From Lachnospiraceae bacterium (GTDB lineage Bacteria; Bacillota; Clostridia; Lachnospirales; Lachnospiraceae), in the NCBI GenBank assembly GCA_022790615.1, contig JAAVXK010000036.1:22886-86885 (forward strand): a stretch of 64,000 bases of DNA. The letters are read 5' to 3'. Both the position numbers and the translations under genes were made by a program. Below are positions 19,387 to 34,473 of this stretch, in pieces. The notes under the pieces were generated by a model, which saw only the letters and a program-made list of their open reading frames with translations, searched no databases and was not told the origin of the DNA. Numbering within the stretch: position 1 is the stretch's first letter; each line of letters opens with the position of its first letter.

Positions 19387-21666
19387 TTATTGATCATTTT
19401 CTTCCTGACGCGGTGCCCCGTCAATCATATGCATCCGAATTCCGGCGTCATTGTCCGCCTTCCCGTTAGAGCATGTTACATGTACTTCCTTTCGCTCTCC
19501 CGAAAACGGATTATACAGCGTCACGGTTTTATCCATTCCATCCTGCGGCATATATACATGTAACTCGCAATTATTAATATAATCGTAGTCCGGCCTCCCG
19601 TCAATCGTTCCGTGCGGGGTGACCGCGCCTTCCCTGACAAAGCATGGAATTTCGGTGTACGGAATACTTTTAAGCGTAATCCATGCTTTTCCGTCGTACA
19701 CTTCATTTGAAAAATAATTGACCCATCTCCCCTCCGGAAGATAGACGTCGGCCTGCGACTTATCGTTAAATACCGGGGCAACCAGTATGTCTCCGCCAAG
19801 CATATACTGCTTGTCCGTGTACGCGCACATCTTATCGTCAGGATATTCAAGAATCATGCTTCGCATGAGCGGCAGTCCCGTATTATGCGCTTCGACGGCA
19901 AGCCCGTATATATACGGCATAAGCCTGTTTTTAAGGCGTACAAATGTCTTTGCGGTCAGCACCGCGTCCTCACCGTAATTCCAGGGCACCCTGTAAGAGC
20001 CGCTTCCGTGCATCCTCGAATGGGAAGACATAAGCCCGAAAGCCACCCATCTTTTGTACACATCCTCCGTCGAAGTATCCTCAAATCCGCCTATATCATG
20101 GCTCCAAAAACTGTAGCCGGACATTGTCAGTGAAAGGCCTCCCCTTAAGCTCTCCTCCATTGATTCATAATCGGATATGCTGTCGCCGCCCCAGTGTACG
20201 GGGAATTTCTGTCCCCCGGCGGTTCCGCTCCTTGCAAACAAAATTGCCTCTTCGGCTCCCTTTTCCTCCAATATTACATTATACACTGCCTCATTATACA
20301 GATATGAATAATAATTGTGCATAAGTACCGGGTCCGCCCCATTATGATAGCATACGCCCTCCGTCGGAATCTGCTCGCCGAAGTCTGTCTTAAAACAGTC
20401 CACGCCCATGTCTAAGAGTTTCCGCAGACAGTCCTGATACCACCTTACCGCATCCTCATTCGTAAAATCAACCACAGCCATCCCCGGCTGCCACATATCC
20501 CACTGCCAGATGTCTCCGTTTTTCTTCTTTATAAAATATCCGTTATCTCTTCCGCAGGCAAACAATTCCGAATTCTGCGCAATGTATGGATTAATCCATA
20601 CGCAGACCTTAAGCCCTTTCGCCTTAATCCTTGCAAGCATCGCCTCGGGTTCGCCAAACACCTTGTCATCCCACTTAAAATTGCACCAGCTCATACCTTT
20701 CATCCAAAAGCAGTCAAAATGAAATACGCTGAGCGGTATCTCTCTTCTCTCCATCTCGTCAATGAAGCTCATTACCGTGTTTTCATCATAATCCGTAGTA
20801 AATGAGGTCGACAGCCAAAGGCCGAACGACCACGCCGGAAGTATGGGAGGTCTTCCGATAAGCCCCGTATATTTTACCAGCACATCCTTCATGCGGCCAT
20901 ACGCATTCTCATCCCCGCATATGACGGAAAATTCAAGGCTTTCGCCCTGGACGGAAAACTGGACTCTCTGCGCAAGCTCGCTTCCAACCTCGTATTCTAC
21001 TCTTCCGGTATTATTTACGAATACGCCGTACCCTCTGTCTGACATATAAAACGGAACATTTTTATAGGAGAGCTGCGTCGACGTTCCCCCGTCGTCATTC
21101 CACATCTCGACAACCTGCCCGTTTTTAACAAACGCGGTAAATCTTTCCCCCAGACCGTATATGTGTTCGTCAACCGATAAGTTCGTTGCTGCGCACATAT
21201 AGTTAACGTCTTGCCAAGATATGTACGCCTCGCCCCGTCCGTCCTCTCTCACATACATGATATCGCCCGGCTTTATTCGCGTAAGATATCGTTCCTTCTG
21301 GTAAAATTCCAATGTCATATCATTTTTTATAACAAGCTTTGCGCCGTCGTTCTCGATAACAGTGTTACCTTCAACCGACTCTGCCTCAAGTTTTGCAGGG
21401 TTTGCATTTACATCAAATGCCGGCACATACCCGGTCTGTCCCTCAAAGTGTGTTAGCTTTACCGTAAATACCCCCGGAGCCGGAATACTTATCCTTACCG
21501 TTATAACCGGCACATTAAGCGTACACCCCCTGTTATATATTTTCCTTACAGGCGCGCATATCTTTAACACCGTGCCATCCTGTTCATAACATGTATCATA
21601 TATTTCAGCCGGCGAAAGGCACTCCATTCCCTTTTCTTTTAACCAATGTCCGTGATTGAACTTCAT
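19387..21666 (-). CDS. yicI: GH31 alpha-xylosidase
   Basis: MKF..G.W start, YGLGERF, FHFDCFWM, nucleophile FKTDFGE, HWGGD, WSHDIGGF. Confidence 0.93.
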   Translation of the reverse strand: MKFNHGHWLKEKGMECLSPAEIYDTCYEQDGTVLKICAPVRKIYNRGCTLNVPVITVRISIPAPGVFTVKLTHFEGQTGYVPAFDVNANPAKLEAESVEGNTVIENDGAKLVIKNDMTLEFYQKERYLTRIKPGDIMYVREDGRGEAYISWQDVNYMCAATNLSVDEHIYGLGERFTAFVKNGQVVEMWNDDGGTSTQLSYKNVPFYMSDRGYGVFVNNTGRVEYEVGSELAQRVQFSVQGESLEFSVICGDENAYGRMKDVLVKYTGLIGRPPILPAWSFGLWLSTSFTTDYDENTVMSFIDEMERREIPLSVFHFDCFWMKGMSWCNFKWDDKVFGEPEAMLARIKAKGLKVCVWINPYIAQNSELFACGRDNGYFIKKKNGDIWQWDMWQPGMAVVDFTNEDAVRWYQDCLRKLLDMGVDCFKTDFGEQIPTEGVCYHNGADPVLMHNYYSYLYNEAVYNVILEEKGAEEAILFARSGTAGGQKFPVHWGGDSISDYESMEESLRGGLSLTMSGYSFWSHDIGGFEDTSTEDVYKRWVAFGLMSSHSRMHGSGSYRVPWNYGEDAVLTAKTFVRLKNRLMPYIYGLAVEAHNTGLPLMRSMILEYPDDKMCAYTDKQYMLGGDILVAPVFNDKSQADVYLPEGRWVNYFSNEVYDGKAWITLKSIPYTEIPCFVREGAVTPHGTIDGRPDYDYINNCELHVYMPQDGMDKTVTLYNPFSGERKEVHVTCSNGKADNDAGIRMHMIDGAPRQEENDQ

Positions 21667-21730
21667 ATTGTAATAACCTCCTCCTCAATGTTTCTTTTAA
21701 TTAGCAGCAAAACCCAAAAAACCGATATAC

Positions 21731-21768
21731 TCAAAACAGGGTGAACACGTAATGTGTTCACCCTGTTT
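21731..21768 (-). terminator. intrinsic terminator closing the giant-protein/peptide transcript
   Basis: 15-bp perfect stem AAACAGGGTGAACAC / GTGTTCACCCTGTTT ending in a T run on the minus strand. Confidence 0.8.
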
Positions 21769-21842
21769 AAGTTATACCGTTGTCAGATGCCATATACACC
21801 TGACATATTACAACAAAGAATTAATCCACCTAATAGCATATA

Positions 21843-21944
21843 TTATGCAAATGGGTTTACTTCTCCTTCAGGTATACTTGTTGTAATAATATCCTCTGCA
21901 TAGAAGACAATTACCTCCATGTCAGGGGCTTCATACTTCTCCAT
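21843..21944 (-). CDS. 33-aa putative RiPP precursor with lasso-type RRE-binding leader
   Basis: Not in ORF track. MEKYEAPDMEVIVFYAEDIITTSIPEGEVNPFA; GAAAGGTGGTGG RBS 6 nt before ATG; YxxPx(L/M) motif and DIITT-S junction; followed by a terminator. Confidence 0.85.
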   Translation of the reverse strand: MEKYEAPDMEVIVFYAEDIITTSIPEGEVNPFA

Positions 21945-22007
21945 GTATATCCACCACCTTTCCTGATTCAGACGACATGTCGTATCACGGACATAACCAT
22001 CTTATCA

Positions 22008-25000
22008 TTATTTACTCTTGCAGTCATTATAACTGCTTGACTTCATAGAGCCGTAGATTGTTTCCTGATTTCCTTCCGGATCAGTAACTACCATATATGG
22101 TCTTGCCCACAAAGTCCTGTCAAGATTATTTGTAACCTTCATTGTAAATACGCTGGTTACACCTACAGAAGTAAATTTAAACTGTTTATGTGGCAGAACT
22201 GTGCCATTTACTGTCTGTCCCAGAGTTGCTATTGTCATCTGCTCTTCCTGTATCTCCTTAGCGCTATACAACATACCCATTTCAACTACAGTATAATCTT
22301 CACCTTCTGGAAGGTTCATAGTTGAAGAGAACGAAAGCTTATTATTTCCGTCCGCTGTATCAGTAGTGTATATTTCAGTAATAGCAATCGTAGGTTTAAC
22401 TGAACCCGGCTTAACAGAAACATAAACAGCTTTCAGTGTTATTGGAGTCTCAGTCAAAACAACAAACTCATATGGCAGTGCAGAACCGATGTTTTCACCG
22501 TCTCTCTCCCAGTGTGAGAAGTAGAGTGTGCTGCTTCCTACCGTAACTTCTGCCTCTGCATTTGCCTGATACTTACTTCCTACTTCAGGTTGTGCTGTAA
22601 CTTCATCAGCAACAGTATTTCCGCTCGCATCTACATATTGTACTGTTACATTTCCTGTCTTGGCAGCTTCTAACTCATATACAGAATATACATTTATATT
22701 TCCTGTCTTATTCTCTGTTGCTGCCAATTCATCCGCTTTGGCTTTAATAGCAGCTGCAATATCCGCTGTTGCTTCAGTTGCACCTTGTTCCATAGACCAT
22801 CCCTTGAATACATATCCAAACTTGTTAGCGCCGGCAGCCAATTGTATATCAGCAGCTTCCGGAACAGCCAATGGATTAATATCCGTACGGCCTACTTCTG
22901 TTTTATTGTCATAACCATAGAAGATTACGGTTATTCCGCCTTCAATACCGCACCATTTACATTTGCCGCCTACATAAGAATGTGGTACGGCAGGCAATAC
23001 CTGATAGAGCATACCTTCATAAGCCATACCTGCTTCTGTCTGCTCTCCTCCTGAGAAATACTTCTTGTTTTCCACATCGTTCACTGTAGTTCTGGCAAGA
23101 ACCCACTTGTAACCTTCACCAGGTTCAAGCGTACGGTTTTCATCAGGAACTTCTACAGGGTCACAGGATGTACAACGTGCTTCCTGTCCCTGGACATTGA
23201 AATCATTGTCCATTACGGCTTCGGCAGTGTACTTATGTCCCGGGTCGCCTTCCTGACAATCTTTACGCTCACACTCAAATGTTGCCAAAACTGTCGTTCC
23301 CTCTTCTCCTGCCTTCCATGAGAATGTAGGAGTACCATACAAATGTCCTTTTGCAACTCCTGCAACCTGCTCTGCAGTGTACTCGGCAGAACATTTGCTG
23401 TCCTTATAGAATCTGCCGCACCTGTCGCATGCATAATGAGCCGGTTTAGCCGGTTCAATACAAGAAGTCGTTGTTTCCGCCTTTACGTATCTCAGGTTAT
23501 GGTTAGCTGAACCTGTCGCTTCCTCTACGCTATATTCAATGCTGTCCCAACCTTCCGGCAGGTTCCATGATGCCATATCTTCTTGAGATATTCCATCGAA
23601 TACCGCAGTCTTTTCTTCATCAGATACCTGATATTTCCAAGAATATCCTTTAGAACAATCTGTAACCTTAATTCCATCCTCAGCAACAGTTGCTCCAGTT
23701 ACCTGGTCAGATACTACCGCTGCATTCAAAACATATTTCTGAGTATGCGACGCATCATGTGCACATGTACGGGTAATAGTAATTGGAATAGAAAGGGCTC
23801 CGTCTGCAACAGCCGCCTCGTCCTTAGTTACTTTTGCATCACCATAACTATGGGCGTCAGCAACTATAGCAAGGGTCTGCTCCTGACTCATTATCTGTTC
23901 TTCAGCAATATCATCCGAACCAACCAAATCACTATCAGCAATACTCCATGTAGCTGTTCCCGTAGCGCTGCAGGTAGCTTCTAATGTTACTTCTTTCTTA
24001 ACTGACGCGCTTTCCTCCGGCACCTCTACATGGTCGCATCCTGTTCTGGTACACTTCTTAGTCTTTGTAGCAGACCATGTACCATCCTCAGCCTGCGTCC
24101 AATTGATATACCACTTATTCAGATGTCCAAGCTGGTCGCTTGTTAATACCCTCATATCCTGTGCAAGACGAACATTAGTCATGCCCTTCTGATACAGGTT
24201 AGCTGTATATGTCATTGTACCCGACTTATCACATGTAGCCTGCGTACCTGATTTTACAAGCTCAAGAAGAGTATAAGTGTCTTCCCACTTGAACACTGTG
24301 TCTCCGTCTTCATTTTCTGTGCCATCTGTCAATGGCAACTCATAAGTCACAACCGGATAAACGTCATCATTAGCTTCACTTGTGTCCGGATGCTCCTCAC
24401 AAGCTGTACACTTTCTTGTTACTGCCAAGTTTGTATATACATGGTCAGCCTCATTCAAGGTCCAGTTAAATACAGTAGTCTCCTTATGTCCAGGTCCTTC
24501 TTTGGTATATACCTTTGTATTCGGATTACCAATCGTAGTCTCTCCTGCATGAATCTGAGCCACATATTCAGTCCTTGTACTTATTGTACAGCTTCCTTCT
24601 CTATGGTTCGGATTCGATACAAACTCAATATAAGGTTCTTCCTGCTCCGCCGGTGCAGACAACAGTGTGCTTACGTCTGTCTCAATAGTTGTCTTATTCT
24701 GTACACTATTAGTAGTACAGCCTTCATTCGCACAATAATATTCTGCCTGTACTTTATAATCAGGAATATTATATGTTTTTCCATCCTGAGTATACTCTAC
24801 CGTTAATGCTCCGCCGGAAACAGCATCCACCTGTTCTGTCCATGTCCATGCCGGCTCCGTCCAGTTATGAGCGTTAGGATCTATAGCCGTTGCCGTCTCA
24901 ATCTTTTCAGGCACTGCATTAACATCACATATATTCTTGGTGCCATCACGATATTTTACAACAACATCATATACGGCATAGCCTTTTTCTGCACAGGAAG

Positions 25001-28000
25001 CGGTCTTATTCTTTTCACTGTCCGCTTTTGTAATAACAACCTGAGGCATTGAATATACAACAGAGTCGTCATCACCATCCAACATGGTAGAGCCTTCGTC
25101 TATAATCATTGCCGGACTCTTGACTTTCAGTACCTTGTCACATCCTTCGTTCGCGCATGTGATAGTAACTATTACACCCTTACTGTAATCATGAACTGTT
25201 TCTTCAGTATCACCAGCTGTTGCATCTGCCCACTGTACTTTTACATTAGCGCCGCTAAGATTATGTTTCTGCTCTACAACTTTCTCCAGTACAGCAGTAT
25301 ACTTGGTTGACTTTGAGTCTGCAGTTACTTTCGAAGTATCATAGCTAAGTTCTACGTTACCGTCAACCGTCTCTGTAACAACGCCGTCTTTTGAAAAATC
25401 ATATGAAGCGTTATATTTCAATGTAACAGTTTTACCACATTCAGGTGTTGGATTATTCGCATCCGCAGGTGCTTCAATATTACCAATCGTAACTTTATTA
25501 TTACACTCTTTACATGTAATCTCCATCTGCGCCTTATCAGTGTCCTTACCTTCTGCGTCTTTCTCCCAGCTGAACTTCACGCTGCCTGACTCAAAAGTAT
25601 GTGGTCGCATTGGAATAATTGTATCTGCTTCTTCTACAGGTTCTGTTGAATCTTCGCCCAAAAACAGTCTGTTACAGGTTGAACAACTATATGTTGCCTT
25701 GTGTCCTTCCTTCGTACATGTAGCAGCCATGTATCCTTGCTGCTTAGTCAATTCATGAGCCGGAGTAATTGATTTCTCCGCCTCTACAGTTCCTTCCGTA
25801 TCAGCAAACGCAAATACTGCCTTGAACGGATAAGCGTTCTGACATGAAAGACTTGATGCATCAAACTCGCCTGTACCGGCATATGTCACAACAACCGGAT
25901 TCTCGGAAGCAGCCGTAAGTTCCTCTCCACACTTATCACAAACGGCCGTCACAGTCACTCCGTTATCTTGACCTGATGCAAAGTTCTTAATATCAAAATT
26001 ATCCCAGTTTGCTTCAACACTACTTACAGTATGCTTTCCTGCCGGAATGGTTACTTCCTGCTCTGTAAATGTCTTTGACAGCTTACCGCTAGGTGTATTA
26101 ATCGTAACCGTTACATCAAGTTTATATTTCTTTTCCTGTGCACAGTTACTCTTTGGGTCACCTTCTTTTATAATAACAGAAATGTTATTCTCAGAAGCTT
26201 CTATAACATGCTCTGCATTATTAGAACATGTAACCTTTGCTGTTACGCCATTAGCCTCACCATAGGCATAGTTCGCAGCATTGAATTCTGTTGTATCAAT
26301 CGAAATGTTATCTACAGCATAGCTGTGGCCTGTAGCAGGCGTCACGTATGTTGATTCTTTTTTGCCACTTATTCCGTTTGCATCCAACTCAAGCTCACTT
26401 AAGCTATCATAACACAATCCACAATTAGGGCACTTAACGTATGCCTTTGCAATAATATCATTCTCGCATGCATCCGTACCTTCCGGTGTTGCCTCAACAG
26501 TTGTTCCGTAATGCTGTTGTTTAGGAATAACAACATCTCCCGTCAGCATATCAGCGCCGGTCTTATCCTCATACATCTGGTGACAATTCACACACTCATA
26601 ATGACCAATCACGCCTTCTTCCCAACAAGTTGCCGCTTTTTCCGAAACCCATTTTATAGAATGTTCTTTTGGTACAATTACATATCTTCCATCCTGCTGC
26701 TCTGCCGGGCTGCAGCCTGAAACATGCTGAGGTTCCTTATCAAATGAACCTCCTCTGACATTGACATTGATTCCTGTAAGTGTACTATCAGTCTCACCGT
26801 CATAGAATATCTTGCTGTCAGAACCGTTACCTACATTGAATGTTCCTCCATTGATATTCAGGTTCAATTTTACAGGGTCATTATCGGTTCCCGGAACCTT
26901 TTTGTAAGGTATAGAAATTACATGCTGCTCGCCAGTAGTTCCTTTTGCCTCAAATGTACCGTCGTTAATTGTCACATCCGCATTGGCCGGGAGGTAAAGT
27001 ACTGCGTTGAATTTCTTGATAGTATCAGTATTACAACATACTTCACTTGAATATGTTCCGCCGTTAATCGTAATCTTGCCAGGAGCCGTACTTCCGTTCA
27101 TGGCAATCGGAGCAAACATACTTGAAATTGAAGGGTTCTTTGTACCGTCTCCTAATACCAATGTTCCGCCAAGGTTAACGTAGATACCATACATACCGTC
27201 TGTCTTCTGGGCATTACCTACGTTTGCATTAATTGTTGCGTCAAGTACTGTAAGCTTACCGCTTGTACCCGTCACACTAATCAATGACGCGCCGTCATAA
27301 CTTGTATTGTTTGACGTAGACATTTCACTTGTCTGTGCATTACACTCAAGTACAGCGCCGCCTTTAATTGTTGATATGCCGGCTACCATCATCATGGCAA
27401 CGCCCTTTGTCTGGTATTTACCGCCATCAATTGTCAATGTTCCTCTCACATCGAATATCGTGTGATTTTCAGCATTATCTGACCATGCAATTCCACCACT
27501 GTCTTCAGCTGCTACAGTATTCTTAATAACGCCTGTAGTTCCTCCTGTCAGAACAAGCTCCTGACCATCCGGAACCGTAACCATATAACCTTTTGTGTCA
27601 ATAGTCACACCAGTAAAGTCATAACTGCCTGCAAGTTCAATGTTATCCAGTAACTGAACTTCACTATTACCAGCATCTTTAGACGCATTAATAGCATCCT
27701 GAAGCTTTGAAAATTTCTTGCCGTTTACACTGAAACTAACCGGTTCTCCAACCTTGTACAGGCCGTCTCCATCCGCATCCGCAATAAGAGCTTTTCCGGC
27801 AGCAACAGAGCCTTCGTTCAATTCTTTTGATATATCAGAAGAGAACTTTCCTCCGGTTACTGAAACCTTAGTCTTGTTGCTTTCACTAGCCTTGTTCGGA
27901 TAGTAGAATACTGAACCGTTATTACCACCTGTCTTAAAAGTTCCGCCGCTAATCTTCAGATTAAGCCTTACAGTACCATACTGTGTCTTGTCATATGGTA

Positions 28001-28925
28001 TTGAGATAACATGCATATCGCTGCTTGTAGAATCAGAAGCTGTAAATGTTCCGCCGCTTATATCTACAGTAGCGCTTGCCGGAAGGTAAAGCACCGAGTT
28101 AAATTTAATAATATTCTCGCCGCTGCATACCAGCGTGCTGGTATATTCACCACCCTTAATGGTAATCCTTCCAGGCGCGGTCGTAGCGTTCATGGCTACT
28201 GCAGCGAACTTACTGGTTACGGACGGGCCTGTGCCATCGGCATTACCCAGTTCCACTTCTCCTCCGTTCCATATGTATATACCATACATTCCGCAGTCGG
28301 TATCGTTACCAACGTTGGCATCAATGCTACCGTAAGTCATAGTAAACTTCGCTCCCGCGCCATCTACATCAATGAATGCGGCGCCGTCATAATAACCTTT
28401 TGCAGCTGCCTGCTCCTTAGTTGCGGTACAGTCAAATATAGAGCCCTTAGCTGTTACCGTACCGGTAACCTTGAGCATATCTACGCCTGCGCTCTCATAG
28501 AGGCCGCCGTTCATAGTAAGATTACCGTTTACCAGGAGCATGGTATGGTTCTTTGCCATGTCGGTAAACCCAGCTTCCTCTACTGGAACTTCGTTAATAA
28601 TCCTAGTTCCTTGATCGAATACAACATTTTCAGCCGTATCCGGAATCGTAATCAGGTAACCCTTTGTATCAATGGCCACGCCTTCCAGATTCTCGGTAAG
28701 CTGTACGTTTTCTTTCAGCTCAATCTTCTTAGCGCCGGCTTTAACAGCAGCGTCCAAAGTAGCGTAATCGCCGCCCTTTCCGACAGTAACAGCCTGTTCA
28801 GTCGTCTGGCCGCCTGTTTCTGTGCCTTCTGCCGCTCTCGCGTTGGACGGTCCCGAAATAAGCGACACTACCATTGCCGCGCTAAGCGTCAGGCTCAACA
28901 AGCGTTTCAACTTCTTTTGCTTCAT
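22008..28925 (-). CDS. 2305-aa secreted/surface protein: duplicated beta-rich N-terminal domains, about 15 His/Cys modules, beta-sandwich C-terminus
   Basis: Start moved to ATG 28925 (GAAAGGAG RBS; signal peptide MKQKKLKRLLSLTLSAAMVVSLISGPSNARA). Two paralogous domains (GMYGIY, AMN.(T/S)TAPG.ITI.GG, FN.VLYLPA, HVISIPY). Repeated H..(T/S)C..G..CxxC. InlB-B-repeat-like GYVFKGWS and YFSHWE. Confidence 0.9.
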   Translation of the reverse strand: MKQKKLKRLLSLTLSAAMVVSLISGPSNARAAEGTETGGQTTEQAVTVGKGGDYATLDAAVKAGAKKIELKENVQLTENLEGVAIDTKGYLITIPDTAENVVFDQGTRIINEVPVEEAGFTDMAKNHTMLLVNGNLTMNGGLYESAGVDMLKVTGTVTAKGSIFDCTATKEQAAAKGYYDGAAFIDVDGAGAKFTMTYGSIDANVGNDTDCGMYGIYIWNGGEVELGNADGTGPSVTSKFAAVAMNATTAPGRITIKGGEYTSTLVCSGENIIKFNSVLYLPASATVDISGGTFTASDSTSSDMHVISIPYDKTQYGTVRLNLKISGGTFKTGGNNGSVFYYPNKASESNKTKVSVTGGKFSSDISKELNEGSVAAGKALIADADGDGLYKVGEPVSFSVNGKKFSKLQDAINASKDAGNSEVQLLDNIELAGSYDFTGVTIDTKGYMVTVPDGQELVLTGGTTGVIKNTVAAEDSGGIAWSDNAENHTIFDVRGTLTIDGGKYQTKGVAMMMVAGISTIKGGAVLECNAQTSEMSTSNNTSYDGASLISVTGTSGKLTVLDATINANVGNAQKTDGMYGIYVNLGGTLVLGDGTKNPSISSMFAPIAMNGSTAPGKITINGGTYSSEVCCNTDTIKKFNAVLYLPANADVTINDGTFEAKGTTGEQHVISIPYKKVPGTDNDPVKLNLNINGGTFNVGNGSDSKIFYDGETDSTLTGINVNVRGGSFDKEPQHVSGCSPAEQQDGRYVIVPKEHSIKWVSEKAATCWEEGVIGHYECVNCHQMYEDKTGADMLTGDVVIPKQQHYGTTVEATPEGTDACENDIIAKAYVKCPNCGLCYDSLSELELDANGISGKKESTYVTPATGHSYAVDNISIDTTEFNAANYAYGEANGVTAKVTCSNNAEHVIEASENNISVIIKEGDPKSNCAQEKKYKLDVTVTINTPSGKLSKTFTEQEVTIPAGKHTVSSVEANWDNFDIKNFASGQDNGVTVTAVCDKCGEELTAASENPVVVTYAGTGEFDASSLSCQNAYPFKAVFAFADTEGTVEAEKSITPAHELTKQQGYMAATCTKEGHKATYSCSTCNRLFLGEDSTEPVEEADTIIPMRPHTFESGSVKFSWEKDAEGKDTDKAQMEITCKECNNKVTIGNIEAPADANNPTPECGKTVTLKYNASYDFSKDGVVTETVDGNVELSYDTSKVTADSKSTKYTAVLEKVVEQKHNLSGANVKVQWADATAGDTEETVHDYSKGVIVTITCANEGCDKVLKVKSPAMIIDEGSTMLDGDDDSVVYSMPQVVITKADSEKNKTASCAEKGYAVYDVVVKYRDGTKNICDVNAVPEKIETATAIDPNAHNWTEPAWTWTEQVDAVSGGALTVEYTQDGKTYNIPDYKVQAEYYCANEGCTTNSVQNKTTIETDVSTLLSAPAEQEEPYIEFVSNPNHREGSCTISTRTEYVAQIHAGETTIGNPNTKVYTKEGPGHKETTVFNWTLNEADHVYTNLAVTRKCTACEEHPDTSEANDDVYPVVTYELPLTDGTENEDGDTVFKWEDTYTLLELVKSGTQATCDKSGTMTYTANLYQKGMTNVRLAQDMRVLTSDQLGHLNKWYINWTQAEDGTWSATKTKKCTRTGCDHVEVPEESASVKKEVTLEATCSATGTATWSIADSDLVGSDDIAEEQIMSQEQTLAIVADAHSYGDAKVTKDEAAVADGALSIPITITRTCAHDASHTQKYVLNAAVVSDQVTGATVAEDGIKVTDCSKGYSWKYQVSDEEKTAVFDGISQEDMASWNLPEGWDSIEYSVEEATGSANHNLRYVKAETTTSCIEPAKPAHYACDRCGRFYKDSKCSAEYTAEQVAGVAKGHLYGTPTFSWKAGEEGTTVLATFECERKDCQEGDPGHKYTAEAVMDNDFNVQGQEARCTSCDPVEVPDENRTLEPGEGYKWVLARTTVNDVENKKYFSGGEQTEAGMAYEGMLYQVLPAVPHSYVGGKCKWCGIEGGITVIFYGYDNKTEVGRTDINPLAVPEAADIQLAAGANKFGYVFKGWSMEQGATEATADIAAAIKAKADELAATENKTGNINVYSVYELEAAKTGNVTVQYVDASGNTVADEVTAQPEVGSKYQANAEAEVTVGSSTLYFSHWERDGENIGSALPYEFVVLTETPITLKAVYVSVKPGSVKPTIAITEIYTTDTADGNNKLSFSSTMNLPEGEDYTVVEMGMLYSAKEIQEEQMTIATLGQTVNGTVLPHKQFKFTSVGVTSVFTMKVTNNLDRTLWARPYMVVTDPEGNQETIYGSMKSSSYNDCKSK

Positions 28926-28939
28926 AGTGTATAAAACTC

Positions 28940-29530
28940 CTTTCATGTATAATATGTGACAGTCGTACAAACCCTCTGCCGGACTGCAAATCCCGGCGGC
29001 GCGCCCAAACAAGGGGCTTATAGGGTATGAAATGGACTTTGCCATGACTTCTCAGAGACATTCACAAGACCTTGTGGAGTGTCTCTCATGAATCTTGCAA
29101 TAATCCATGAAACACACAATGGCACATTACGTTTGCAGTTCCAACCTTCCACAAAGGCATGTAAACTTTCCCTTGCAGAATATGAATCCATATGGTTCCC
29201 AGCAAATCACTTCATAATGTCATGGATGCTTCTGCCCTCCTCTCAGTATATCCATATAAATGGTAATTGCCCATTGTCATATAACTGCCACTTTCATTGC
29301 CGCTTCTGCAGCAATGTATGGAAACAAAAAACCTTCCCACCCATTTGTTCCCATACATAAGCCGCAGAAACATGCTTTCGTTAAATACACTACGGCAAAA
29401 CGCCGTCTCGCCGGACTCCCGGCATTGAACACACTTTAACAAAACATAATTTTGCAGATAAAATTATTTTGCAAAATATATTTTCAAAATATATATAAAA
29501 GCATATTTTTTTCAAAACACACTTATATAC
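28940..29530 (-). promoter_or_regulatory. long (about 600 nt) structured 5' leader
   Basis: Lies between a consensus promoter and the ATG at 28925; long hairpins at 29304-29369, 29054-29086, 29410-29423 and 28978-28997. Confidence 0.6.
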
Positions 29531-29535
29531 CCTAA

Positions 29536-29564
29536 ATTATAGCACCCGGCTATCTTATTGTCAA
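29536..29564 (-). promoter_or_regulatory. perfect-consensus sigA promoter for the giant protein/peptide unit
   Basis: TTGACA-17-(TGC)TATAAT. Confidence 0.85.
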
Positions 29565-29771: not shown

Positions 29772-30968
29772 CTATTTCCCGCCGATATCGCGCAATGCGC
29801 CAAGTTCCGTTTTGAGACTTTTTCTGTAACGAAACAGCTGTCTGAACACACGGTAAACAAGAAAAAACGGAATGCATACCTTATGCTTTGCAAGGAACGG
29901 CTTATGTCTGCGATACCAATCCATGTCCGGAAACAGCCTTCTTACTATATATCTTCTTCTTACTGCTGCGCCGGGCGTCCCTCCGTCTATATGCATCTCC
30001 TGCATTTTCCTCTCCACAAGCCCTTTCGATGTTCCATATACTCCCGACAATGCAAAATCAGCCAGCAGGGTCTTTTCCTTTTCCGTAAGCGCCGGCGGAT
30101 TTGACAGCGCGTTCTCTCCAAATATTTTCCGGCTCAAAGCCCTCATTTTTGCCTCAAACGAGGCCATCCCAAGCTTATCCGCCTCACTTGTCACGTAATT
30201 CCAGTCTAACGCATCCCCCTTTTTCCATATATACACATATATGTCGGCCAGGTATCGGAATCCCGCGCCGGCGTTTAAGTAATGCCGGTACATGTGGGCA
30301 ATCATGTAGATATAGAAGTCCTCGTCGCTAAAATGCCTTCCGTATTCCAACCCTTCGTCCACAATCAGCCTGTCGCGCACTCCCCTGTAATATTGACATA
30401 ACGTCGGGGAAGCTTTGTCAAAGAGTCTGCCGTGCATCTCAAAACATCCCGCCGTCGGCTTCACGAATACGTCGTGATATTTTTTGTTGAGCTCCTCTGT
30501 CCGAAACCCCAAATTCTCCATTACCCGCCTGAGCTTTTTGTGGCAGGACACGTCATAGAGAATGTCCACATCGCCGTTCTGGCGCATTCCATAACACGGA
30601 TACATATACTGCAGCACGCTCCCCTTCAGGGGCATATACCAGATTCCCGCCGCTTCCATTGCCGTAAGGACCTGTTCCCTTGACGCGTCGAGAAGCATGT
30701 TCTTACGTATCGCCTTTCCCTTCTCCATAGTCCATTTCTGCACTGTGGATGCGTCTGCAGACTTGAAAGATTCCGTTCTTTCCAACGGCATACATATCAT
30801 GGCAGCCATATTATGGAACACGCCCATCCTGCACAGCCTATCCAAATCCATCAAAGCGACCCTGTCTTCCTCCGGAGCGCGGTCATGCAGGGCGCAGGCC
30901 GCAAGATACAACAGATCCCACGCTGCCGCGGGCATCTTTTTATTATCCGTCCTCTGCTCCTTACCCAT
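29772..30968 (-). CDS. nucleotidyltransferase family protein (NTP_transf_5-like)
   Basis: PLKGSVL..MYP..GMRQNGDVDIL motif, FEMH, H..RH....GAGFRYLADI; ATG 30968 preferred over GTG 30983. Confidence 0.88.
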   Translation of the reverse strand: MGKEQRTDNKKMPAAAWDLLYLAACALHDRAPEEDRVALMDLDRLCRMGVFHNMAAMICMPLERTESFKSADASTVQKWTMEKGKAIRKNMLLDASREQVLTAMEAAGIWYMPLKGSVLQYMYPCYGMRQNGDVDILYDVSCHKKLRRVMENLGFRTEELNKKYHDVFVKPTAGCFEMHGRLFDKASPTLCQYYRGVRDRLIVDEGLEYGRHFSDEDFYIYMIAHMYRHYLNAGAGFRYLADIYVYIWKKGDALDWNYVTSEADKLGMASFEAKMRALSRKIFGENALSNPPALTEKEKTLLADFALSGVYGTSKGLVERKMQEMHIDGGTPGAAVRRRYIVRRLFPDMDWYRRHKPFLAKHKVCIPFFLVYRVFRQLFRYRKSLKTELGALRDIGGK

Positions 30969-31013
30969 ACTGCACGCCCTCACCTTTCCCTAATTATCGC
31001 CAAACACTATAAT

Positions 31014-32783
31014 TTATCCAAACTTTATCTCTTTGTCGCATATCGACAGCGCCGCCATCCTGTGGGTTACTATAATGACCGTCTTATCAGTCATTGCCTT
31101 GAGATTAGCAAGAAGCCTTATCTCAAGAGCCTCGTCGAGCGCGCTAGTCGCCTCATCGAGCAGTAAAACCGGGTTGTCCGAAAATACCGCCCGCGCAATT
31201 GCAATACGCTGCATCTGCCCTTCCGAAAGACCCGTGCCGCGTTCGCCAAGCAAAGTGTCAACACCCTGTTCTAACTGTCTGACAAAGCCATCGGCGCATG
31301 CAATTTTCAATGCCCGCCAAAGCCGTTCTTCCTCCTGCATCATACCCGGATTGCCGAATGCTATAATCTCGCGAATCGTACCGGACATAAGCTGGTTCCC
31401 CTGCGGAACGTATGCAAAAAGCCGCCGCTGTCTGAGCGTAAGAGGAAGTTTCCCCGCATCCGAAACAAGGTACACCCCCCCGCCATCCGGATGATACAAG
31501 CCCATAAGCAGCTTGAGAACGGTGCTCTTGCCGCATCCGGAATGTCCGGTAAATGCAACATACTCTCCCTTACATATCTCTAAGCAAAGACCCGAGAGCA
31601 CTGCAGGCATTGACTGCCCGTCCGGCAGATTATCTTCCAGAACACCCGACTGTACCGGAGGTCTGTAAGTAAAGGATACGTTTTCCACACAGATTCTATG
31701 CAGACGCTCCCTGTAAAACACATGCTCTGGACTTTCATCTTCGCCGCTGCAACCTGCCTCTGTTATTTCATACTCATCATTCATACTATTCGTCCCCGCC
31801 GTTTCATGTATGACGCTGTCAGGCAGATATTCCGCCTCCATGAGACGCTCCGCGCTTGCTATCATCGCATAAAACTTTGGCAGATATCCCGTAATATTAG
31901 CAAAAGGATTCTGTATCTGACCGATAAGCTGCATTACGGCAGTCAGATTTCCATAACTCATAGTATCTCTTAGTATGCCGTACCCGCAAAAAACAGCTCC
32001 TAACACATAAGCTCCGTTCATTGCGGCTCCGAAACCGATGTTACATATATTAGAAAAATGATTCCTTCTCATCTTGGCCGCGCGGTGTTCTTTCATAAGT
32101 TCCTCCGCGCGTTCCGCCGTCGAAGCCTCCTGCGCGAAAGAACGGACAATCATCATTGCGCCAAGACGCTCCTGAAAAAATATTCTGAGACTCCCGTCCG
32201 CCTCCTGTATCTTCTTATGCAATTTCTTAAGGGCTTTCCTGAAAATGTAGGCCATAATAATCAAGATAGCCCCTCCGGGAACAAGTATTATGATAAACAC
32301 CGGCTCAATATACAGTATTGCGGCCAGTGCGCCCACAATCTTAACAGCCATTCCCGCCACGCCGGGAAGAATCTGAGCCATTCCGTCCGCTACTACAACC
32401 GTATCGGACGTCAGCCGGTTCATCCATTCACCTGAATTCACGCATGACACATATGCGTAATCCTTATACAGCAAAGATTCAAAAAGCCGCTTTTTCAAAC
32501 GGTTTTCGGAAGCGGAACGCGTGAATTCCTCCAAAAAGCGATAGACTGCCCGCAGCGCAATCTGTACAATCATTACTCCCGCAAAAGCCATGGCCGCCAC
32601 AGCAAATCCATCCGCGTTTCCAGCCACAGCCTCATTTACCAGTTCCCGCAGTATCATTGCGTATGCCACACCGCAGACCGACAGCACGGACTGTACGGCC
32701 AACAGTATCAGGATGTGTATTCTAATCTTTCCGGCCACGCCATTCAGCCACTGTAACGCGGAACGGTTTATTTTCTTTTTCAT
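31014..32783 (-). CDS. ABC exporter, fused permease/ATPase, no C39 peptidase domain
   Basis: TM domain; Walker A GHSGCGKST; signature LSEGQMQR; Walker B LLLDE. Confidence 0.95.
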   Translation of the reverse strand: MKKKINRSALQWLNGVAGKIRIHILILLAVQSVLSVCGVAYAMILRELVNEAVAGNADGFAVAAMAFAGVMIVQIALRAVYRFLEEFTRSASENRLKKRLFESLLYKDYAYVSCVNSGEWMNRLTSDTVVVADGMAQILPGVAGMAVKIVGALAAILYIEPVFIIILVPGGAILIIMAYIFRKALKKLHKKIQEADGSLRIFFQERLGAMMIVRSFAQEASTAERAEELMKEHRAAKMRRNHFSNICNIGFGAAMNGAYVLGAVFCGYGILRDTMSYGNLTAVMQLIGQIQNPFANITGYLPKFYAMIASAERLMEAEYLPDSVIHETAGTNSMNDEYEITEAGCSGEDESPEHVFYRERLHRICVENVSFTYRPPVQSGVLEDNLPDGQSMPAVLSGLCLEICKGEYVAFTGHSGCGKSTVLKLLMGLYHPDGGGVYLVSDAGKLPLTLRQRRLFAYVPQGNQLMSGTIREIIAFGNPGMMQEEERLWRALKIACADGFVRQLEQGVDTLLGERGTGLSEGQMQRIAIARAVFSDNPVLLLDEATSALDEALEIRLLANLKAMTDKTVIIVTHRMAALSICDKEIKFG

Positions 32784-33238
32784 CGCTTAAGCTTCCTTTT
32801 TAGCCGGCCGTATATCTCTTTCAGCCAGAGGATTATAACCCTGATATAGAAAAAATCACACCATATATGGGCGTATACCCTATATCTCCAGTCCGAAACC
32901 GGAATCGTCCTGCCATCCCGCACTACGGCGGAAAGCACGCCGATAATCTGGCGGTCGGTAATTCCGTATTCCCTGCGCCGGCAGTTATCCCCGCAGAGTA
33001 CATAGCTGTCATTATTTACTTTCAAGATACGATGCAGGACATATTTCCCGTCATTGCGCTTATATAGGGGAACGTCGTATCTCTGGCAGCGCCCGTCAGG
33101 CTTACGAATAATCATCAAATCCCTGTTCTGCCTTAGCAGCGGCATCATGCTTGTGCCAACATTCGTATACACAAGCCTGCCGCTTTCACTGATTTCTTCC
33201 TCAAAGGTCTTTTTATCATCCATCCATAGTCCCACCAT
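32780..33238 (-). CDS. S24/S26-family peptidase (Ser/His type, no N-terminal TM)
   Basis: GTSMMPLL catalytic Ser, VLHRI, CGDN; overlaps the ABC gene by 4 nt; start could be 33223. Confidence 0.88.
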   Translation of the reverse strand: MVGLWMDDKKTFEEEISESGRLVYTNVGTSMMPLLRQNRDLMIIRKPDGRCQRYDVPLYKRNDGKYVLHRILKVNNDSYVLCGDNCRRREYGITDRQIIGVLSAVVRDGRTIPVSDWRYRVYAHIWCDFFYIRVIILWLKEIYGRLKRKLKR

Positions 33239-33282: not shown

Positions 33283-33540
33283 TCATTCTATAGCCCCGAT
33301 AGAGTTAAGTTTTTCAATTATCTTATTGACGTCCGCCTCAATCACTTCCCGCGGAGCGTCATATTTTGCAGCCATTGCATCTACAATCTCTGCCTGCGTA
33401 GTCTCTTCCTTAAGACAGTTAACAATAAATGCCGCCGTGCGGTTGCTTCGCACCATACCCGAAAATACGGACGTGCTTCCCGCAACCATAATCTGCTCAC
33501 CGTCACTTTCATGGGTGATGAAATCTTTCCGCAGTTTCAT
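33283..33540 (-). CDS. PqqD-family RiPP recognition element (stand-alone RRE)
   Basis: 85 aa: three beta strands, then NRTAAFIVNCL...IVDAMAAKYDAPREVIEADVNKIIEKLNSIGAIE. Confidence 0.92.
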   Translation of the reverse strand: MKLRKDFITHESDGEQIMVAGSTSVFSGMVRSNRTAAFIVNCLKEETTQAEIVDAMAAKYDAPREVIEADVNKIIEKLNSIGAIE

Positions 33541-33711
33541 CTATACAAAACCTCCAAATTATATATGCAGAGTGCATATATCTTAACTATTTATCCATGG
33601 GTACGCAATACTCCTATATATATTATCTGTATATCACAGGACAATATACAATAACCAGTATTAACGTAAGAATACTCAATAATTAGCAATTCAACATTAA
33701 GGTATGAATAC

Positions 33712-34473
33712 TCACTTCATACCTTCATAAGCCGTCACGGCGGCCTGCGCTTCCATATTACATGCAAGCCGGTACAATCCGGCTTTTGAAGTTATCTGTT
33801 CCGTCAGGCGCATAACCTGCTCCAGCTTATCCGAACACGCCGGGCGGTAGGTTTGCTGCATAAGAAACGGCCAGGCCTCCCTGCGCGTAATTTTACGAAT
33901 CCTGTTTTCACTGCCGCGTTCCAGAATGCATACCGCTTTCAGGGGAACCGCAATATTATTACTCAAATGATGCTTCCCGTCCCATGGTGTGCCATATACG
34001 GTCACTCCGCCATCCGTAATCCTTAGCAGCGGCTTATCGTCGTTAACCATTACCGCACGGCTGCCGAAGGTTTCTCTCCATATCCGCGTATGCGTACTCT
34101 TTCCAACGCCGCTCTTAGCCGTGAAAAGATAGGCCTCGCCATCCACCGCAACCGCCGAACCATGAAACAAAAGAATTCCCCAATCTGTCAGCTCTTCCGC
34201 AATCTTTCTGTACACTGCAAGCGTCTCCAGGTAATTGTCCGAAAACCGCCGTACACTCACGCCATTACGCTCATCCTGCATTGCGGACTTTTCTTTTTCA
34301 AATACTATATCGGAATATTCTACACAAACTTTACAAGCAGGTTTCTCATCCGTCAAATATTCCCGGCAAAATAGTTTTGTTGAATTATATAAGGCAGAGA
34401 TACCAATAGGAACATCTGCCAGTTTTATATTAAATCTTATATTTTCCCCCAAACCTTTCCTCCTGACATACAA
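33712..34473 (-). CDS. HPr-kinase-like P-loop kinase (ScmC / lasso-kinase-like)
   Basis: LFHGSAV, Walker A AKSGVGKST, VNDD, YGTPWDGK; true start may be TTG at 34452. Confidence 0.85.
   Translation of the reverse strand: MYVRRKGLGENIRFNIKLADVPIGISALYNSTKLFCREYLTDEKPACKVCVEYSDIVFEKEKSAMQDERNGVSVRRFSDNYLETLAVYRKIAEELTDWGILLFHGSAVAVDGEAYLFTAKSGVGKSTHTRIWRETFGSRAVMVNDDKPLLRITDGGVTVYGTPWDGKHHLSNNIAVPLKAVCILERGSENRIRKITRREAWPFLMQQTYRPACSDKLEQVMRLTEQITSKAGLYRLACNMEAQAAVTAYEGMK

Follow-up and report, generated by a model that had tools for sequence, protein, structure and literature searches.

The linear polyphosphorylated peptides (LPPs) described by Popov et al. (Nat Commun 2026, May; PMC13381572) were discovered by starting from SipW-like signal peptidases that are co-located with RREs. 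Their core set comprises an SpI enzyme (LppS), an RRE (LppB), an HprK-like kinase (LppK), an NTP transferase (LppN) and an MsbA-like pump (LppD). About 126 clusters were reported, mostly from Bacilli, and the studied one, lppA-K-B-S-D-N, belongs to Paenibacillus alginolyticus DSM5050. The precursors follow the consensus Y-x-x-P-x-V-L-x-H-Q-x-I-x-F-E-T-x-x-S, in which the conserved block ends at the Ser. In a heterologous host, the P. alginolyticus precursor receives one to four phosphates, all of them on core Ser3; the S3A exchange abolishes phosphorylation, and neither S3T nor S3Y is accepted. Deletion of lppK leaves the peptide unphosphorylated, and deletion of lppS abolishes the cleavage after T-1, which requires the RRE, the LppS triad S29/H68/D93 and the leader residues F-3, E-2 and T-1. 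The unphosphorylated precursor is cut poorly, phosphorylation near the scissile bond promoting cleavage. Deletion of lppN has no visible effect, and LppN activity was undetectable in reconstitution. In the crystal structure of LppB, D70 hydrogen-bonds the leader Tyr and N33 fixes the Pro kink. The published genes are embedded in capsule loci, and the authors speculate on biofilm (PMC13381572). As sampled there, the LPP set (SSN cluster 1) is from Bacillales; the Clostridia that we found in the paper's table stand only in other SSN clusters, with a different RRE type. Our literature search found the LPP family name in no paper other than this one.

In the 64,000-nt stretch of DNA analysed here (the window), a 33-residue ORF very probably encodes an LppA-type precursor of a linear phosphorylated RiPP of the LPP family. 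It belongs to a large nameless gut-Clostridia branch of that family, which is not a new kind of system or chemistry. The complete five-gene enzyme set lies on the strand of the peptide gene, upstream of a giant surface-protein gene plus a gap of 727 nt, at a distance of 7.8 kb from the precursor (Table 1).

Table 1. Coordinates of the features of the candidate LPP locus in the window
Feature	Positions	Strand	Description
Two hairpins 3' of the peptide stop, then U-rich tract	21712..21805	minus	from folding
lppA-like precursor gene	21843..21944	minus	33 codons plus TAA stop; translation identical to that of the preliminary description
Spacer, giant-gene stop to peptide ATG	21945..22007	minus	63 nt; contains GGTGGTGG and a 12-nt palindrome
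2345-aa secreted surface-type protein	22008..29045	minus	MucBP domain; directly upstream of the peptide gene
Promoter-like site, TTGACA-17-TATAAT	29536..29564	minus	upstream of the giant gene; read directly
LppN-like nucleotidyltransferase	29772..30983	minus	NTP_transf_5 (PF14907), E 5.8e-43
LppD-like MsbA-type ABC exporter	31014..32783	minus	ABC_membrane and ABC_tran; no C39 peptidase domain
LppS-like S26/SipW-type leader peptidase	32780..33238	minus	152 aa; weak archaeal-type signal-peptidase match (TIGR02228)
LppB-like discrete PqqD/RRE	33283..33540	minus	85 aa; PqqD E 1.4e-15
LppK-like HprK-related kinase	33712..34473	minus	253 aa; Walker-A K-S-G-V-G-K-S-T; ScmC 7e-7

The preliminary description of this DNA had placed the peptide ORF behind a ribosome-binding site, 63 nt past the giant gene and ahead of a terminator, and this is confirmed, the reading direction being that of the minus strand (21944 to 21843). 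A Shine-Dalgarno site, GGTGGTGG, was read directly from the sequence at 21951-21958 (minus strand), with a 6-nt spacer to the ATG; it differs by one mismatch from a AAGGAGGTG-type Shine-Dalgarno. The stop codon of the 2345-residue ORF occupies 22008-22010, leaving exactly 63 nt to the peptide gene. This spacer also holds a perfect 12-nt palindrome, ACGACATGTCGT, at 21972-21983, which may form a small hairpin or bind a protein. Downstream of the peptide gene, the hairpins are located at 21805-21781 and at 21768-21734, the latter with a 15-bp stem, and the 146 nt past the peptide stop fold with -52.4 kcal/mol (z = -6.2 against shuffles). Together with the U-rich tract, the hairpin pair is a probable intrinsic terminator of a transcript shared by the giant gene and the peptide gene. 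A simple terminator/promoter scan of positions 21500-22300 flagged no terminator, and it missed the second hairpin because the U-run is interrupted. At the other end, the promoter-like site ahead of the giant gene is the likely start of a transcript that also carries the peptide gene.

Two RNA-derived contigs bear on this transcript. One, from an RNA library of a mouse-gut sample and belonging to a closely related strain, spans 21780-21955 and with it the entire peptide ORF; it is weak evidence of transcription of the ORF, because DNA carry-over is possible in RNA libraries. The other, a metatranscriptome contig from another run, covers the giant gene's 3' end as far as 21957; the 63-nt spacer is bridged by neither of the two. 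The exact peptide sequence has also been called as a gene, nameless, in other assemblies. Since the ORF is short and has no proteomic or ribosome-profiling support, one could take it for an accidental reading frame, never translated, within the giant gene's 3' untranslated region. We regard this as scarcely credible, given the hundreds of homologues, the conservation at the level of single residues, the Shine-Dalgarno site and the conserved gene neighbourhood. As judged from sequence, the ORF is a genuine gene rather than a product of chance.

A tblastn search with the peptide against 60 relatives gave matches in nine of the 36 same-family genomes, usually covering residues 2-27 and often in two to four copies per genome. 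The homologous ORFs extracted from them have the N-terminal block in common, with unrelated tails. A profile built from 26 family members matched 492 database proteins at E <= 1e-3 (best 3.5e-12, among 5.8 billion sequences), all of which are 31-69 residues long and carry neither a Pfam domain nor a name. The family is hosted by gut Clostridia and Erysipelotrichales. Conservation was counted over 116 non-redundant members, with positions numbered from the Tyr, so that Tyr1 is Tyr4 of the window's peptide. Tyr1, Phe11, Glu14 and Asp15 (Tyr4, Phe14, Glu17 and Asp18 in the window) are invariant, positions 16-17 are hydrophobic in every member, Glu12 is kept in 108 and Pro4 in 98, about 15% of the members being devoid of the Pro. 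Thr18 and Thr19 (Thr21 and Thr22 in the window) are present in 88 and 99 members, respectively, and Ser20 (Ser23 in the window) is usually followed by Gly. The tails after this Ser vary in sequence and in length (7-31 residues) and are rich in Gly, Asp, Asn, Glu and Pro. In the window's peptide, the conserved leader block thus extends from Tyr4 to Ser23, followed by the variable tail Ile24-Ala33. It is a member of a small subgroup with tails ending in G-E-[VI]-[ND]-P-F, and is atypical at two leader positions, Val13 and Tyr15. The strain variants N30D and V29T plus N30D are limited to tail codons 29-30. The preliminary description had expected homologues to differ in the core while the leader and the Ser stay invariant, and the alignment bears this out, with the Ser in 115 of the 116 members.

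The same source had read the peptide as a RiPP precursor with a YxxP leader for binding an RRE, which is supported. It had further pointed to the junction Ser23, rather than a C-terminal Ser, as the likely target of the kinase. The near-invariance of this residue and the role of the homologous LPP Ser as sole phospho-acceptor agree with that choice. Moreover, in 22 of the 116 tails, the window's included, the conserved Ser is followed by no further hydroxyl residue (Ser, Thr or Tyr). From the leader-core junction onwards, it is therefore the only acceptor common to the whole family. The assignment of Ser23 as the predicted kinase target is well supported by the alignment and by analogy to the LPP system.

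The five enzyme genes were examined for residues of known function. The S26 peptidase, whose ORF overlaps the ABC gene and comes after the PqqD gene, has Ser30, His69 and Asp84 invariant across 13 homologues. In the RRE, Asn33 and Asp70 are invariant across 14 homologues; they were equated by eye with N33 and D70 of LppB, using the RRE sequences in the paper's table, and the comparison with LppB and LppS was drawn from the text and tables of that paper (PMC13381572). The putative kinase is matched weakly by HprK models, and homologous loci consistently include it among the adjoining genes. Between the kinase and PqqD genes, the window has an AT-rich gap of 171 nt (33541-33711), compared to 10-70 nt in most homologous loci, and this gap may serve as an internal promoter or in regulation. 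A small ORF in it (33591-33689) was considered as a precursor and rejected, as it bears no resemblance to the family.

In relatives of the window's genome, homologues of the peptide adjoin homologues of all five genes, for instance in the order large protein, peptide, kinase, PqqD, S26, ABC, NTP5 in genome G005. Independent seeding with the S26 protein gave 25 loci (Lachnospiraceae, Ruminococcus, Eubacteriales, Thomasclavelia, Herbinix and others) with the recurrent order HprK-PqqD-S26-(ABC)-NTP5. In eleven of these, the profile matched a peptide encoded on the strand of the cassette, usually immediately ahead of the kinase and in one case behind NTP5. Among the loci lacking a profile match, seven were inspected just before the kinase and no hidden precursor was found there, so that dispersed precursors, as in the window, seem common. 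In the window's own genome, the profile search returned only two family ORFs, and the one studied here is the sole one on the contig of the five-gene set.

The second family ORF of this genome (L095) lies on contig C23, at 1246-1410 on the plus strand (profile E 7e-8), and has no Pro in its YxxP motif. Genes for a further S26-like peptidase and a further PqqD (1875-2372 and 2353-2619, both minus strand) are oriented convergently to it. This 8.9-kb contig carries no kinase, nucleotidyltransferase or exporter, the neighbours being SpoIIP and a germination protease, and its peptide system may depend on the main cluster in trans. The presence of a second PqqD/S26 pair with a peptide of its own makes the pairing of enzyme sets and peptides in this genome ambiguous. 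The closest relatives of the window's S26 and ABC proteins (71-74% identity; loci L040 and L041) consist of S26 and ABC genes only, with no kinase, PqqD or NTP_transf_5 gene within 10 kb. They adjoin a gene resembling the germination protease of C23, and the ABC gene of L040 is broken into two parts. Both loci look like decaying remnants. Elsewhere, some S26-like matches fall inside open frames of 370-520 residues (G385:C29, G229:C9, G119:C1, G458:C9, G407:C134), and in L082 kinase-like and S26-like matches are contiguous, which suggests that natural kinase-peptidase fusions exist.

Within the class that contains Thomasclavelia, 83 of the 399 sampled genomes have an S26-like match, and the same cassette occurs there with further leader variants. 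Leaders of the form F-E-L-E-E-S-I-A-T-S from this class (L087, L089, L092) have a Ser at both F+5, the published LPP register, and F+9, the Clostridial one; these bridge forms are possible evolutionary intermediates or belong to peptides with two acceptors. A search of 400 Thomasclavelia-class genomes for Paenibacillus-type LPP clusters yielded only gut-type leader variants. A further observation concerns the tails. In genome G018 (L025), the last 12 residues of a peptide (7609-7746, plus strand) are nearly identical to the last 12 of the preceding protein (6692-7438, plus strand), a membrane-anchored, low-complexity protein of 249 residues located after a sortase-like gene. A second peptide of G018 (L026, 9981-10097, plus strand) has in its core an acidic D-N-E-I-P-F-D-D motif that also occurs inside this protein. 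Peptide cores may mimic, or derive from, the tails of surface proteins.

To relate the Clostridial leaders to the described family, they were aligned profile against profile with four published Bacilli precursors, whose sequences were copied from the table of the LPP paper (PMC13381572) and form the bridge between the two groups. In this alignment (hhalign E 4e-4, probability 35%), the Y-x-x-P motifs of the two groups fall on one another, as do the F-E motifs, and a 3-residue gap just after the Pro coincides with the β-bulge of the published leader. Strings typical of the Clostridial leader are absent from the supplementary tables of that paper, and so are the gut hosts of this leader variant. 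PDB sequence searches with the RRE and with the peptide profile did not return the LppB-LppA entries, giving only weak matches to the lasso RREs TbiB1 and TfuB1.

S26-type enzymes prefer a small residue at P1 and a hydrophobic one at P3, and three registers of leader cleavage fit this, namely after position 16, after Thr22 and after Ser23. We favour, with middling confidence, a cut after Ala16 (F14-Y15-A16 / E17), whose product would have 17 residues and carry the phospho-Ser at +7. Across the family, P3 of this register is the invariant Phe, P2 is Glu in 93% and P1 is Val, Thr or Ser, and in the alignment the F(-3)-E(-2)-T(-1) of the published cut site falls on the conserved F-E-x. The register is preferred because both the residue identities and the bridge forms match that site; Val, common at P1 under this F-E-x model, is unusual there for S26 enzymes. 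A cut after Ser23, with Ser at P1, is unlikely, the P3 residue being Arg in 25 of the 116 members.

The preliminary description had let the leader end at Thr22, with Thr21 as the -2 residue, giving an 11-residue core from Ser23 to Ala33 that is modified on its N-terminal Ser. Several features speak for such a boundary. Position 20 is hydrophobic (Ile, Val, Met or Leu) in all members and a small residue occupies position 22 in 114 of 116 (Thr in 99, Ala in 11, Ser in 4), a P3-hydrophobic/P1-Thr pattern resembling the published F(-3)/T(-1); in addition, the conserved block ends exactly at the Ser, like the published motif, and a Ser at P1' fits the published promotion of cleavage by phosphorylation. 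However, the reasoning that had led to this boundary does not hold. The Thr(-2) requirement belongs to lasso B2 cysteine peptidases; it is inapplicable here because the leader peptidase is an S26 Ser-His-Asp enzyme, and Thr21 and Thr22 both vary within the family. Anchoring the leader alignment on the Ser pairs unlike residues, whereas anchoring it on F-E pairs identical ones, and the bridge forms show F-E-x-x-x-S in the published register. A cut after Thr22 would also turn the invariant Glu17-Asp18 into leader residues without counterpart in the published leader. Altogether, we hold this boundary to be possible, if doubtful. With the cut after Ala16, by contrast, phospho-Ser at +7 would be part of a product that keeps the conserved acidic head (the E-D-h-h-T-T-S block) before the variable tail.

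The window's peptide is almost certainly not a lasso peptide. The preliminary description had concluded that it cannot be one, and the conclusion stands on the gene content, the cluster encoding neither a cyclase nor a B2 peptidase; the original argument from the peptide sequence depended on the assumed register. Counted from Ser23, the core has Glu at positions 4 and 6, but a core starting at Thr21 or Thr22 has Glu at position 8 or 7, with a tail of at most five residues. Such a core start, the YxxP leader common to lasso precursors, and the presence of one Asn-synthase-family gene for a protein of 627 residues on another contig of the 85%-complete genome could be taken to indicate a lasso precursor whose cyclase and B2 peptidase genes lie elsewhere in the genome. 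However, the window has no Asn-synthase-like or transglutaminase-like gene from 21.8 to 34.5 kb, and PF13471 (B2) has no match anywhere in the 85%-complete assembly. The 627-residue protein is the sole full-length Asn synthase, and none of the three PqqD genes of the genome lies on its contig. Moreover, the cluster has a different leader peptidase of its own, two-thirds of the published LPP clusters likewise lack lasso genes (PMC13381572), and a tail of five residues or fewer would be too short to hold a thread. A lasso precursor served by distant genes is therefore highly unlikely.

The position of the peptide gene behind a giant surface-protein gene recurs in the family. Among 30 members examined, ten lie at most ~170 nt (nine of them at most 70 nt) downstream of a large protein, and these large proteins end in one of two recurrent nameless C-terminal domains that are unrelated to each other. 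Type 1 is found in the window and in L021, L030, L045 and L023, and type 2 in L027, L034, L053, L052 and L062, with jackhmmer E values of 1e-37 to 1e-130 within each type. In the sampled large proteins, Pfam sees only InlB-B-repeat or MucBP domains, located ahead of the C-terminal domain. This recurrence, along with the position of the peptide gene on the giant gene's strand and a probably common promoter and terminator, would suit a peptide that is chiefly a partner of the giant surface protein, such as a ligand, an anchor, a chaperone or a co-secreted factor, its link to the enzymes being secondary or absent. We consider that distinctly unlikely, since other members lie directly before the kinase with no large protein nearby, and the conserved RRE-type leader would have no evident role in a protein-binding peptide. 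A partnership and an LPP-type precursor are nevertheless compatible, as the peptide, once modified, could cooperate with the surface protein. One such scheme, speculative and in our estimate rather improbable, is that of a gut-Clostridia LPP-type peptide which is exported, decorated with phosphate, and binds, anchors or regulates the giant surface protein at the cell surface. If true, the surface-protein partnership would be the first concrete function for the LPP family.

Taking the peptide as an LPP-type precursor, we propose the following pathway. The peptide would be translated from its own Shine-Dalgarno site, probably off the transcript of the giant surface-protein gene. The PqqD-type RRE would bind the leader segment Tyr4-x-x-Pro7, and Ser23 would receive one or several phosphates from the HprK-like kinase. 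Assisted by the RRE, the soluble S26 Ser-His-Asp peptidase would then remove the leader. The NTP_transf_5 enzyme would probably add a further group to the phosphate; by analogy this may be a hexose, as PsmN, the only functional precedent for an NTP_transf_5 enzyme, is required for one or two hexoses on phosphorylated pseudomycoidin. The MsbA-like ABC transporter would export the product, and no macrolactam would be formed. For the window's peptide, each chemical step is inferred; RRE binding, polyphosphorylation of the Ser and S26 cleavage have been demonstrated in the homologous system of P. alginolyticus.

Compared to SipW/Sec11-type signal peptidase I, with the substrates TasA and TapA in Bacillus subtilis, the window's S26 enzyme belongs to the same fold family and shares the Ser-His-type catalysis. 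SipW cuts Sec signal peptides. Unlike SipW, the window's enzyme adjoins an RRE, and its expected substrate is an RRE-bound cytoplasmic leader. Furthermore, the SipW entries in the table of the LPP paper (PMC13381572) start with a hydrophobic, membrane-anchor-like segment, which the window's enzyme lacks.

The locus also resembles the paeninodin and pseudomycoidin systems of Bacillota, which make phosphorylated lasso peptides and in which an HprK-like kinase (PadeK, PsmK) puts one to several phosphates on a single Ser of a precursor with a leader. They share with it the PqqD-type RRE, the [Y/W]xxP leader, the ABC exporter and, in the case of PsmN, an NTP_transf_5 homologue. However, these systems differ from the window in having an Asn-synthetase-like cyclase and a B2 cysteine peptidase, their product being a macrolactam; their acceptor is a C-terminal Ser, and their leaders carry WxxP.

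The closest likeness is to the LPP systems themselves. Both have the identical enzyme set of HprK-like kinase, PqqD RRE, S26 Ser-His-Asp peptidase, MsbA-like exporter and NTP_transf_5 enzyme, both lack a cyclase, and in both the precursor consists of an N-terminal Y-x-x-P ... F-E-x ... Ser block followed by a variable tail. The S26 triad Ser30/His69/Asp84 of the window corresponds to the published S29/H68/D93. Despite this similarity, the leaders differ in their spacing. In the Clostridial leader, the distance from Pro to Phe is three residues shorter, whereas that from Phe to Ser amounts to nine positions, compared to five in Bacilli, with an invariant E-D-h-h-T-T inserted ahead of the Ser and after F-E-x; the distance from Tyr to Ser remains nearly equal (18 residues in LPP leaders versus 19 in Clostridial ones). 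At 33 residues, the window's precursor is among the shortest, compared to the 35-200 residues reported, and its gene is displaced behind that of the giant surface protein. In addition, the LPP machinery is known from soil Bacilli, whereas gut Clostridia and Erysipelotrichales carry a large precursor family of at least 492 sequence clusters, in which the cores are very short, the leader is distinct and the genes are often coupled to those of giant surface proteins. As short cores suit mass spectrometry and synthesis, this clade could be a good one for working out how the final LPP is built, what the nucleotidyltransferase does and which function the family has.
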